48,138 bases of DNA from Myxococcales bacterium (GTDB lineage Bacteria; Myxococcota_A; Polyangia; Polyangiales; Polyangiaceae). Positions within the stretch are counted from its first letter, which is position 1. Each line of letters starts with the position of its first letter. Of the stretch, positions 20,456 through 34,688 are shown piece by piece. The position numbers and the translations under genes were made by a program. The notes beneath the pieces were generated by a model. It worked only from the letters and a program-made list of their open reading frames with translations, searched no databases and was not told where the DNA came from. Where the stretch lies: NCBI GenBank assembly GCA_025362165.1, contig JANYHY010000745.1, positions 1 through 48,138 of the forward strand. Reading direction: 5' to 3'.

Positions 20456-22453
20456 ATGAAGACCGCATCTCCCCCCCAGTTCGAGTCGCTCTTCGAGCGG
20501 TGGGCCTCGCGCGTTCGTCGCAGGCTCACACTACGCGCAGCGCTCACAGGTGCGGCGCTCGGCCTCACGGTCGCGATCGTTCCCGCGGGCATCGCCTGGA
20601 AGACGGGACATGGCACATGGCGTCCGCTCGCCGCGACCGTTGGTGGCGTGGGTTTGGTCGCTGGTCTCGCGATGAATCGGCGTAAACGCTGGTCGGATGG
20701 AGACGTCGCGTTGTATCTCGACGAGCAGCTCAAGACCCAAGAGTCGATCTCGACGGCGGTCGACCTTCGTGATCCCGCTTCGCATGATTCAGTTCCAGAT
20801 TCGGGCGATGCGGACGCAGCGCGCGCGGTCGTGTTGACGAGCGCCACGTCTGCCCTCGAAGGTGGCAAACCGCAGAACGCGCGACCCGCCATTTGGAAGC
20901 CGTTGCACGCGCTCATCCCGATCGCGGCTGCAGGTCTCGTCTTCATCGCGCGCGCGCCGCTCCCGCCCGGACCGCCGGTCGTCGCGACACCAGGGACGAC
21001 GCTCGTTCAAATGAGCGAAGTGGACGGCCTCGAGAAATCGATCAAGCTCGCGCAGCTCAACGCGCGAGACGACGCACAACGCGAGCGCCTCGACAAAATT
21101 TCGAAGGACGCCGAGAAGCTCAAAGAAGAGCTCAACAAAGGCATCGAGAAGCGCGACGCGCAGGACAAGATCGCGCGCTTGAAGGAGCAGCTTGCGGCAG
21201 AGCGTTTGACGCTCGGCGAAGGCGAGCAGCGCCAAGGTCTCGAGAGCGCGATGAGCAAGCTCAACGAGAGCGACGTGACCAAAGACGCAGCGAAGGCGCT
21301 CGGTGATCACGACATGGAGAGCCTCGACGCGCAGATGGAGAAGCTCGCCAACGAGCGCGAGAAACAAGATCGCGAGCTCGCCAAGAAGAAGCTGCAAGAC
21401 GCCGCTGACGCCGCGAAGAAGGACGGCGCCCCAGACGTGGCGAAGGCGCTCGAGGACGAGAAGAAGTCGATGGAAGACCGCGAGAAGCGCGCAGAAGCGC
21501 TCCGCGATCTCGCCGACGCGATGAAGTCCGAGGGAATGCAGTCACCCGACGTGGAGAACAAGTCCGAGGCGCTCGATCGTGAGGGCACCGACAAGGCAGC
21601 GCAGCAACTAAGCGAAGCGATGGGCAAGGCGCTGAGCAAGCTCACTCCCGAAGAGCGCAAGCGGCTCGCCGACAAGCTGAAGCAAGAGGCGCAAAAGGGC
21701 GGAGTCGGGCAGAGCGATCCGCAATCACTCAAGGACATGGCCGACGATCTGTCGACGCCCGAGGGCCAGAAGAAGCTGGAAGATCAGCTCAAGGACATGG
21801 CCAAGCAAGACGACCAGAGCGACGAGAGCAAGCGACAGAAGGCGCTCGACGACGCTCAAAATGGCGCTGAAGGAACCGAGAAGGACATCGGCAAACAACA
21901 GCAGGGTCAACAAGGCCAACAAGGTCAACAAGGTCAACAAGGCCAGCAAGGCCAGCAAGGCCAGCAAGGCCAGCAAGGCCAACAAGGCCAACAAGGCCAA
22001 CAAGGCCAACAGGGTCAGCAGGGTCAGCAGGGCCAGCAAGGCCAACAAGGCCAACAAGGTCAAGGACAAGGTCAGATCCCGATTCCTCAGAACGGTCAAG
22101 GTCAGGGTCAAGGTCAAGGTCAAGGTCAAGGTCAGGGTCAAGGTCAGGGCGATCCGAATGGAGCACCTGGGCCGGGCTCACATCACGACACGGGGACCGG
22201 TGACCACAGCGGGCACACCAACTCGATCGATGACGCGCAGTCGTTGAAGAGTCATGCGAACGGTCATCTCAACAAAGACAAAGGCATGCCGGGCGCGGTG
22301 AACACGTTCGTCCCCGGAAAGGCGGGCGGCACCGCGAACACACGCGGCACGGGCGATCTGCGATCCGTCGGTCCGACCGAAGTGGACGGCGTCGAGCGAA
22401 GCGACGTCCCCCAGGAATATCGCGAGCACGTCCGGCAGTACTTCCAACCGTGA
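20456..22453 (+). CDS. Multi-TM, coiled-coil, low-complexity protein (DUF4175/TIGR02302-like by architecture)
   Basis: There are two N-terminal TMs ([19 protein letters not shown] and [16 protein letters not shown]). Then come [22 protein letters not shown], a third TM, a long K/E/D-rich coiled coil, (QQG)18 and (GQ)9, and the C-terminal motif [16 protein letters not shown]. An alternative ATG lies at 20360. Confidence 0.7.
21896..22147 (+). repeat. Coding microsatellite: 9-nt CA[AG]CA[AG]GG[CT] x18 (21896..22060), then 6-nt GGTCA[AG] x9 (22094..22147)
   Basis: Counted codon by codon. The units differ only by synonymous A/G or C/T changes. Confidence 0.95.
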
Positions 22454-22485
22454 CGACTTCCGAAGTACGACGCGACGAGGAAACG

Positions 22486-34500: not shown

Positions 34501-34688
34501 GCGCTCAAGCACACGGCCCCTCGGTGCTCGACGCCGCGCCGCCACCCTTGATAGGTCAACGACCGATCGTCGGCACCCCTCCAATCACGCCGCCTCAGCC
34601 GAAGCCTGGGACGCCTCAGCAGCCCGCTGCAAACAAGATGAGCGCCGCAGAGCGCCTCGCGCAGAAGCGGCGCGAGCGAAAGGGTTGA
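31587..34688 (+). CDS. 1033-aa membrane protein: N-terminal TMs, VWA, a GATase1-like (ThuA/DUF4159-like) domain, a second VWA, a C-terminal TM and a basic tail
   Basis: The two MIDAS motifs are LVMIDRSRSID and VIVIDYSGSMG. The GATase-like segment is LALILEGDK...FDLVVLSDV...GGGLLLMGG. The late TM is LVLCAAIAMLMGV. There is a TGATG overlap with the upstream gene. Confidence 0.8.
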   Translation: MPPLPRLAYLALALVIAIVTVALVVRLKRKKKLGVGSVALAILAVLPLTYQGFVHAQLIRETYVRFNRPVALLLPAVLALVLAWRFSLLPARMTKWRKGLVVFFSSLAALAAALAVAEPELGRPLDRMTILVMIDRSRSIDLVPGAETRMQMEQKLAEKGMHDDDRTGTIVFGAEAATEDPPRPKSDLPPPQRIEVGRDGTDIEAAIRRALAELPSDTAARLVLVSDGVQTRGDALSAAAASVAADVPIDVVPLDQKTFPDVRVVSVRAPSHADEGEPLDFRVVTSSTTPTEVEVRVKRDGELIHTGKVHVSAGEDVLRLREIANEAGLHRYDVEVTAVDPNADGSPEDNAGSTFVKVRGPSLALILEGDKGSGQPLAKALEASGFKTVERSTSGVPDDIGGLAGFDLVVLSDVRASDLTTTQIDAMASYTRDLGGGLLLMGGDRSMGPGGYARTPIEDVSPVNFDLKEEKRRASLAEVIVIDYSGSMGMMVGGQTKLALANEAAARSATLLGPGDRLGVEHVDTIAAWTIPLGPVNDASAISAKIRAVAVGGGGIYTDLALREGYAALEKETVNLKHLLLFADGADAEQIAGCRALVTNAAAKGITTSVISLGRGSDSPELEVLSKLGGGRFYLIEDATKLPSVFSQETILASKSSIKEQDFKISLGDPSAATRGIDFSSAPVLHGYVVTQAKPRAQIALGGPENDPILTTWAIGIGRSAAFTSDFKDRWGSAWLKWPGGVKMMGQVGRDTARKSDDPRVRLESDASGGELHVRADVVGDDGRAQTFRRLTVHVAGPDGFGRDVQLEAVGAGRYAANVPLSRPGTYVATAKDEMSGEAVGTTGSVLSAGEELRPTGTDRVLLSRIASMTGGKVRDTLAGIYDDRAARRFAYTPMGAPLVLCAAIAMLMGVGARRLGMPEFLTKLFSVAGGRVRHTEAEKRANLAFAEAHERKRADARTKTNEGLLARKASRAQAHGPSVLDAAPPPLIGQRPIVGTPPITPPQPKPGTPQQPAANKMSAAERLAQKRRERKG

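Follow-up and report, generated by a model that had tools for sequence, protein, structure and literature searches.

We analyzed a 48,138-nt stretch of DNA from a Myxococcales bacterium of the family Polyangiaceae (hereafter the window, ~65% G+C), in which eight consecutive plus-strand open reading frames (ORFs) span positions 20456–34688. They combine a MoxR-type ATPase, an ABC-2-like transporter pair and three proteins of the DUF58/VWA kind with two protein families that have not been classified. The cluster is a real, tightly packed operon: it is chromosomal, vertically inherited and, among the genomes listed, specific to Polyangia. All eight frames are open from start to stop:

20456 to 22453, plus strand: gene 1, a membrane protein of 665 residues with two to three N-terminal transmembrane (TM) helices, as read from translation and hydropathy
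22486 to 23526, plus strand: gene 2, a MoxR (MRP/AAA_3) AAA+ ATPase of 346 residues (358 from an alternative GTG at 22450)
23523 to 25760, plus strand: gene 3, 745 residues with a signal peptide, a DUF4350-like region and a TM hairpin; the signature protein of the system
25757 to 26926, plus strand: gene 4, an ABC ATPase of the DrrA/GldA/NodI type, 389 residues with a C-terminal extension
26923 to 28779, plus strand: gene 5, a permease of 618 residues with 12 hydrophobic segments, taken as 12 TM helices
28781 to 29647, plus strand: gene 6, a DUF58 (VWA-like) protein of 288 residues with the metal-ion-dependent adhesion site (MIDAS)-type motif DASLS
29647 to 31587, plus strand: gene 7, a BatA_N-VWA protein of 646 residues, comprising a double-TM BatA_N anchor, a VWA domain (MIDAS DTSAS), an extra region of ~400 residues and a C-terminal TM helix
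31587 to 34688, plus strand: gene 8, a VWA/GATase1-like protein of 1033 residues with five TM helices

The junctions between these genes leave almost no room for intergenic DNA:

22450, genes 1/2: GTGA overlap, or a 32-nt gap if gene 2 begins at ATG 22486
23523, genes 2/3: ATGA overlap
25757, genes 3/4: GTGA overlap
26923, genes 4/5: GTGATGA overlap
28781, genes 5/6: 1-nt gap
29647, genes 6/7: TGATG overlap
31587, genes 7/8: TGATG overlap

All seven read as a preliminary description of the window had claimed. That description had also offered ATG 22486 as an alternative start for gene 2, and this is most likely the true one: it gives a protein of 346 residues, exactly the length of the orthologues at two of our numbered loci (L001 and L002), and GAGGA stands 8 nt 5′ of it. 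With this start, the gene 1/gene 2 junction becomes a 32-nt gap. Scans for consensus promoters and terminators within the cluster found sites no more often than in shuffled sequence, and so speak neither for nor against a single transcript.

An invariant core and a separable Bat-like part

Judged by gene order, the eight-gene arrangement is not a product of chance: it recurs in independent genomes down to ~31–33% identity in gene 3, and the cluster behaves as one conserved unit. We scanned one genome per species for gene 3 and obtained 123 relatives, reading taxonomy for the best 80. All 80 belong to Polyangia (Myxococcota), among them Sorangium cellulosum So ce56, Minicystis rosea, Chondromyces apiculatus, Polyangium and Byssovorax; the nearest is a Myxococcales metagenome-assembled genome (MAG) at 92% identity.

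Gene content was counted by tblastn of nine window proteins against the loci, each denominator being the loci with enough flanking sequence. Across these species-level genomes, the genes for MoxR, gene 3, the ABC ATPase and the permease were collinear in 75 of 75 loci, and in So ce56 the MoxR/gene 3, gene 3/gene 4 and gene 4/gene 5 junctions are still ATGA/GTGA overlaps. Gene 1 was within the locus in 55 of 62, directly upstream in 40 and elsewhere in the same locus in 15; the Sorangium orthologue (45% identity, with the C-terminal motif) lies ~5 kb downstream on the opposite strand. Genes 6–8 were present as a trio in 27 of 55 loci, gene 6 stood alone in 3, and 24 had none of them. Absence from the locus characterizes Sorangium, Polyangium, Chondromyces, Minicystis and some MAGs; in So ce56, the permease is followed by a Ser/Thr kinase and unannotated ORFs.

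The invariant core is therefore MoxR, gene 3 and the ABC-2-type transporter, usually accompanied by gene 1, and the part resembling Bat (Bacteroides aerotolerance) operons is frequent but separable. As the preliminary description had proposed checking, an ABC pair does lie between moxR and DUF58—genes 3–5 intervene in the window and in every full-length locus. Its picture of an exporter inserted into a Bat operon is nonetheless the wrong way round, and we reject it because the core is kept at every locus whereas the DUF58/BatA/VWA trio is kept in only 27 of 55.

A neighbor-joining tree of gene 3, rooted at its midpoint, has eight-gene loci on both sides of the root and one eight-gene locus nested in a clade otherwise without genes 6–8. 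From this pattern, the eight-gene state is probably ancestral, with genes 6–8 later lost or moved. The surroundings are conserved as well: a pantoate ligase gene lies upstream, and genes for a Ser/Thr kinase, a Zn-ribbon protein and homocysteine methyltransferase lie downstream (as in L002 and L083), and the Pendulispora brunnea locus matches the window in gene order and downstream neighbors. With these conserved flanking genes, the locus is a stable chromosomal site rather than an island.

Variants of the Bat-like part were also observed. In one clade (L028 at 15712–17181, likewise L063, L067 and L074), an insert of ~1.4 kb separates the DUF58 gene from the BatA-VWA gene and contains an ORF of ~306 residues without a Pfam match. 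In three genomes the operon ends after DUF58; at L025, a 782-residue HEAT-repeat protein (16132–18480, plus strand) replaces the VWA genes. Weak "gene 6" matches overlapping gene 5, which arose during hidden Markov model (HMM) iteration on locus ORFs, were discarded as artefacts of over-extended ORFs in high-GC genomes.

Component proteins and neighboring genes

HMM searches confirmed the preliminary calls of MoxR, ABC ATPase, DUF58, BatA_N-VWA and VWA/GATase1-like proteins. The ABC-2 permease call stood in part, since the window protein falls below the Pfam cut-offs but the assignment recurs across its homologues; the "DUF4175-like" label given to gene 1 did not survive.

By its domain profile and motifs, gene 2 belongs to the MRP/AAA_3 group of MoxR AAA+ ATPases. 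It matches AAA_3 at 1.3e-61 (206.7 bits against a cut-off of 27) and AAA_lid_2 at 1.2e-14 (54.2 bits), its Walker A (GAPGLGKT) and Walker B (LADEINR) motifs are both intact, and its closest solved structure is PDB 2r44 (2.4e-73). The second ATPase, gene 4, matches ABC_tran at 2.2e-30 (106.5 bits against a cut-off of 25) with intact Walker A (GPNGAGKT), signature (SKGMKQR) and Walker B (LILDEP) motifs; its NCBIfam matches, TIGR01188 drrA (5.3e-67) and TIGR03522 GldA (1.4e-66), both lie below the curated equivalog cut-offs.

The permease is harder to place. Three ABC-2 membrane models match gene 5 just below their cut-offs, among them ABC2_membrane_3 (PF12698; 5.5e-7, 29.4 bits against 31.6) and ABC2_membrane_2 (PF12679; 2.3e-5, 24.2 against 27.2), and the NCBIfam GldF model matches at 4.5e-6. 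Only the N-terminal half, which holds the highly conserved segment ASEREGxTWEA, is ABC-2-like; the C-terminal half consists of six helices with no family assigned. Homologues number in the hundreds, under the names of Polyangiaceae, Myxococcales MAGs and Pendulispora, and nearly all of them among the matches listed bear precomputed PF12698/PF12679 matches. The AlphaFold2 model has a mean predicted local distance difference test score (pLDDT) of 69, and its best fold matches—ABCG25, NosY, PmtCD and ABCA7—are nonsignificant (E at least 0.05). We also considered a fused ABC-2 dimer; this is unproven, since the two halves have no detectable similarity and no internal duplication was found.

Gene 3, the signature protein, belongs to a family that lacks any curated model. 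Its match to DUF4350 (PF14258) is weak (3e-4, 21.6 bits, below the Pfam cut-off of 30.4), and DUF4350 is the sole family that recurs among its relatives (14 of 46 members, best E-value 2e-4). The family comprises 461 clusters among 1.84 billion representative proteins. The AlphaFold2 model (pLDDT 86.6; predicted template modeling score, pTM, 0.85) confidently predicts a multidomain periplasmic protein: a β-sandwich (~35–146), an α/β DUF4350-like domain (~185–410) carrying a disordered Pro-rich insert (281–345), the TM hairpin (443–500) and a β-rich C-terminal domain (505–740). An exact-sequence look-up of gene 3 gave no contig. No PDB relative was found by sequence, and a whole-chain fold search returned partial Ig-like domain matches only, with no solved structure resembling the whole chain.

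Gene 1 likewise belongs to a family without any curated model. After a conserved loop (R76, R78, D81, A85, L88, D89, L92, E96, T100, A101) that follows the second TM helix, the chain continues as a long, charged helical stretch, then runs through low-complexity QQG/GQ repeats to a conserved C-terminus with the motif S..P.EY......YF.P. The loop, the helical region and the C-terminal motif are the conserved parts of the family; the repeats are its variable part. In the DNA, the repeats form one tract:

21908 to 22146, plus strand: tandem DNA repeats within gene 1, identified by Tandem Repeats Finder

It comprises a 9-nt unit repeated 17 times (QQG, 21908–22063) and a 6-nt unit repeated 9 times (GQ, 22094–22146), both perfect-looking. 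Residues 481–560 have low column conservation and are the least conserved part of the family; from this, repeat number probably varies among strains. Pfam and NCBIfam gave gene 1 no match except low-complexity Collagen. Homologues (n = 304) carry the names of Polyangiaceae, Myxococcales MAGs and Pendulispora among the matches listed, and all 120 listed are without a Pfam domain. DUF4175 (PF13779)/TIGR02302 was rejected: there was no match at E ≤ 10 and none in NCBIfam, and 0 of 45 family members match. The resemblance of TIGR02302 to gene 1 presumably extends to overall architecture only, that is, N-terminal TM helices followed by a Gln/Gly-rich region.

In the Bat-like part, four MIDAS-type motifs, read from the translations, are intact across genes 6, 7 and 8. 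Gene 6 matches DUF58 (PF01882) at 1.6e-37 (129.3 bits against a cut-off of 23.4) and VWA_2 at 4.2e-7; hydropathy reveals no hydrophobic or TM segment, and the protein is predicted to be cytoplasmic. Gene 7 matches BatA (1.7e-10, 41.6 bits) and VWA_2 (3.4e-11), and tblastn of it against plasmids gave no match. Gene 8 matches VWA_2 (two stretches; 63.2 bits), VWA, VWA_3 and GATase1_like (PF07090; 4.9e-7, 30 bits against a cut-off of 27). Its order is four N-terminal TM helices, a first VWA domain (VWA1; MIDAS DRSRS), the GATase1-like domain, a β-rich region, the fifth TM helix (890–908) and a basic C-terminal tail of ~125 residues. A second VWA domain (VWA2; residues 479–650, MIDAS DYSGS) is flanked by residues 396–468, which match PDB 3rht, and 678–740, which match 2gk3. 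Both structures are GATase1-like, and VWA2 thus appears to be inserted into, and to split, the GATase1-like domain.

In three Pendulispora species and several MAGs, a single fused protein of 1,600–1,690 residues corresponds to genes 7 and 8 (P. brunnea, L083 at 10001–14839; also P0426, P0428, P0437, P0439, P0441 and others). Such a Rosetta-stone fusion is an indication that the two VWA membrane proteins may act together.

Directly after gene 8 lies a further ORF on the same strand:

34704 to 36203, plus strand: gene 9, an HExxH (HEVGH) metallopeptidase-like protein of 499 residues, 15 nt after gene 8

Its profile matches are weak (Reprolysin_3, 2.5e-4; Peptidase_M66, 3.4e-4). A homologue follows gene 8 in 5 loci only, representing 4 genomes (L001 and L006 share a contig), and at L001 it overlaps gene 8 by 4 nt. 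As an accessory gene it is lineage-specific, and it is probably co-transcribed with the operon.

Several other features were observed in the window. Three Ser/Thr kinase genes (15614–17023, plus strand; 36193–37500 and 42288–44465, minus strand) place at least one on either side of the operon. In L001, L002 and Pendulispora, a Zn_ribbon_9/CT398-like gene (37513–38250, minus strand) and the downstream kinase keep their synteny with the operon. A tRNA-Met (CAT) at 38354–38428 (minus strand) is the sole Rfam/ARAGORN match in the window. Near the 5′ end are a multihaem cytochrome-like ORF (2146–2925, minus strand), with weak MtrC/MtrF domain and cytochrome c7 matches, and a FadL/TodX-type outer-membrane channel (4321–6141, minus strand).

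Relation to known systems

Bat operons—including Borrelia bb0170-0176, Leptospira bat and Rhizobium leguminosarum RL3499-RL3502—have in common a MoxR AAA_3 protein, a DUF58 protein and a BatA_N-anchored VWA protein with a MIDAS. The present cluster also encodes MoxR, DUF58 and BatA_N-VWA together and poses the same puzzle of how an AAA+ ATPase in the cytoplasm can pair with VWA domains facing the periplasm. Bat relatives are reported to have envelope and stress phenotypes (PMC5700661, citing Vanderlinde 2011). The cluster is, however, not a canonical Bat operon. In the canonical layout, exemplified by Sagittula (MoxR-DUF58-DUF4381-VWA-VWA-BatD), MoxR adjoins DUF58, whereas here genes 3, 4 and 5 separate the two and the MoxR gene is linked more faithfully to the ABC genes than to the DUF58/VWA genes. 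The second VWA protein here has 1033 residues, five TM helices and a GATase1-like domain. Unlike in canonical Bat operons, none of the nine products matched TPR (BatB/BatC/BatE), BatD or DUF4381.

The closest predicted system is archaeal: the DUF4350 (arCOG01314)-MoxR-vWA system, for which a role in secretion or membrane remodeling has been predicted (Makarova, Galperin and Koonin 2015, PMC5898192). Like the present operon, it sets a membrane-anchored protein with a signal peptide and an extracytoplasmic flavodoxin-like DUF4350/GldG-like domain beside a COG0714 MoxR and a vWA protein, and most of its components are membrane-bound or extracytoplasmic (PMC5898192). It differs in that its description includes Ig-like/S-layer proteins but no ABC transporter (PMC5898192). 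Gene 3 itself matches DUF4350 weakly and has a TM hairpin and an extra C-terminal domain, compared with the single C-terminal TM helix of the archaeal protein.

Three other systems share a part of the design. GldA/GldF/GldG is likewise an ABC-2 ATPase and permease pair with an accessory protein, large and extracytoplasmic, whose fold is of the GldG/DUF4350 class, but its permease has 6 TM helices against 12 here, the present pair is coupled to MoxR and occurs in another taxon, and the two are not equivalogs. NosDFY(L), which serves nitrous oxide reductase maturation (PDB 7o0y, 7qba, 7znq), resembles the transporter through a weak match to its ABC-2/type V membrane fold and is a precedent for an ABC-2 transporter driving a periplasmic partner protein; NosD, NosL and NosZ are absent here, and nos clusters are without MoxR/VWA genes. 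The Pseudomonas aeruginosa antagonism-resistance cluster arc2 (PA4317-PA4323), compared by description only, likewise joins a MoxR-like ATPase to a VWF-domain protein and is implicated in envelope-level protection (bioRxiv 10.1101/2021.08.22.457286), but differs in composition and taxon, and neither an ABC-2 pair nor the gene 1 or gene 3 family is reported there. Our literature searches found no paper on the present arrangement or on MoxR in myxobacteria, and thus no functional characterization of the architecture such as the preliminary description had named as a possible objection.

Proposed mechanism and rival explanations

Topology was assigned from TM segments by hydropathy and from the positive-inside rule. 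The prediction places the bulk of genes 1, 3, 7 and 8 in the periplasm, including the three VWA domains that genes 7 and 8 carry between them; on the cytoplasmic side it places MoxR, the DUF58 protein, the ABC ATPase, a gene 1 loop of ~70 residues and the basic gene 8 tail. For the Borrelia BatA-type protein BB0173, the VWA domain was shown experimentally to face the periplasm (PMC5700661), and the predicted topology of genes 7 and 8 agrees with this. Given that placement of their VWA domains, direct contact between MoxR and a MIDAS is plausible only for the cytoplasmic DUF58 protein. The energised envelope machine suggested in the preliminary description fits this topology, even though its idea of an inserted exporter does not hold.

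The reading we favor, at roughly even odds, is that the cluster products form a dual-ATPase complex for envelope assembly or export, and we infer the following mechanism. The products would make up one inner-membrane complex that exposes most of its mass to the periplasm and draws its energy from two ATPases on the cytoplasmic side. Gene 3 would serve the ABC-2 transporter as a partner in the periplasm, and the transporter would spend ATP either on exporting or extracting a component of the envelope or on conformational work on the periplasmic side. GldG is a presumed partner of GldAF in this manner, and NosD partners NosFY. Acting from the cytoplasm, MoxR would assemble or remodel the membrane components, using DUF58 as a VWA-type adaptor in genomes that have it; candidate contacts lie in the conserved gene 1 loop, in the basic gene 8 tail and in the BatA_N loop of gene 7. 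Metal-dependent binding surfaces directed toward the cell wall or outer membrane could be offered by the VWA/MIDAS domains in the periplasm together with the long helical, low-complexity arm of gene 1, and the expected role would be envelope assembly or maintenance. A more specific version is unlikely on present evidence: that MoxR is a dedicated partner of the ABC-2 transporter, with both ATPases acting on one inner-membrane complex (gene 3 and permease, tethered by gene 1) to build or drive a Polyangia-specific, periplasm-spanning VWA/MIDAS structure.

The dual-ATPase reading draws on the domain content and intact catalytic motifs, the coupled junctions and their persistence in So ce56, the collinear core, the probable ancestry of the eight-gene state, the fusion of genes 7 and 8, the restriction of the 80 listed genome matches to Polyangia, the stable chromosomal setting, the gene 3 model with its recurrent weak DUF4350 matches, the permease fold matches and the BB0173 topology. 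Several points weigh against it. The ABC-2 and DUF4350 assignments lie below the Pfam curated cut-offs, and the fold matches of the permease have E-values of at least 0.05. In 24 of 55 loci no DUF58/VWA genes lie nearby, which makes the two halves separable, at least in the genome, and loci without genes 6–8 give MoxR no obvious cytoplasmic VWA partner. The topology is derived entirely from hydropathy and the positive-inside rule, and that the products interact we infer from sequence.

The separability of the halves also bears on whether the operon merely houses two independent systems without joint function, one a Bat-like module of MoxR, DUF58 and VWA proteins, the other an ABC-2 exporter unrelated to it and accompanied by an accessory protein. 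Canonical Bat operons carry no ABC transporter, and the DUF58/BatA/VWA genes are gone from those 24 loci while the ABC genes remain. Against this account, the constant companions of MoxR in all 75 loci are gene 3 and the ABC genes rather than DUF58; ATGA/GTGA overlaps join it to that core even where DUF58/VWA genes are lacking, as in So ce56; and the full eight-gene order persists to ~32% gene 3 identity and appears ancestral. We judge joint occupancy without joint function to be quite improbable. The permease raises a different prospect, maturation of a periplasmic metal center or metalloprotein, in which a metal or sulfur species would be delivered or gated by an ABC-2 transporter of the NosFY kind while MoxR and the VWA proteins serve as insertion chaperones like NorQ/NorD, CoxD/E/F or magnesium chelatase. 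The best fold matches of the permease include NosY, although nonsignificantly, and the JGI label of permease homologues is multi-copper enzyme maturation permease. The four intact MIDAS-type motifs and the Zn-peptidase-like gene 9 that follows in some genomes would also suit this role, and MoxR/VWA pairs are documented as chaperones of metal insertion (PMC9976466, PMC13036017). Yet no NosD, NosL or client metalloenzyme was found in or adjoining the operon in any locus examined, and the VWA domains are predicted to be periplasmic, beyond the reach of MoxR; a maturation role is accordingly very doubtful.

Polyangia glide, and the only specific NCBIfam matches of the ATPase and permease are GldA and GldF, which raises the idea that the operon is the Polyangia version of the GldA/GldF/GldG transporter of Bacteroidota, with a role in gliding motility or in secreting surface proteins or slime. 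The scores fall well short of family membership (GldA, TIGR03522, 225 against 402.6 bits; GldF, TIGR03518, 26.8 against 288.5). DUF4350 is reported to be GldG-like (PMC5898192), but neither GldG (TIGR03521) nor ABC_transp_aux matched, no other gld/glt genes lie nearby, and the best 80 of 123 genome matches to gene 3 include none from Myxococcia, which also glide. A Gld counterpart therefore has a very low probability. That the locus serves phage defense or conflict as a MoxR-vWA system is essentially excluded. Ternary conflict systems of that kind exist (PMC7159879), and gene 2 has a weak bpMoxR match (8.9e-13), but AAA_3 (1.3e-61) far outscores it, PADLOC gives generic P-loop similarity only for both ATPases, the operon keeps synteny with housekeeping neighbors across genera, and no effector, β-propeller or mobile-element signature was found.

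In the operon, components of known kinds occur together with two protein families yet to be classified, those of genes 1 and 3, which could now receive family definitions. Few bacterial operons that still lack a mechanism are as widespread as modules of the MoxR/DUF58/BatA type. Here MoxR is locked, across a class, to an ABC-2 transporter and a periplasmic partner for which a confident model exists, and cultured organisms with complete genomes (So ce56 and Pendulispora brunnea) carry the locus. Operons with and without the VWA genes, together with the fused forms of genes 7 and 8, provide natural variants. If both ATPases act on one complex, the locus would give a defined context in which to ask what MoxR does at the membrane. 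If MoxR is indeed a dedicated partner of the ABC-2 transporter, the operon would represent a previously unrecognized type of dual-ATPase envelope machine and possibly a handle on Bat-type MoxR/DUF58/VWA modules.

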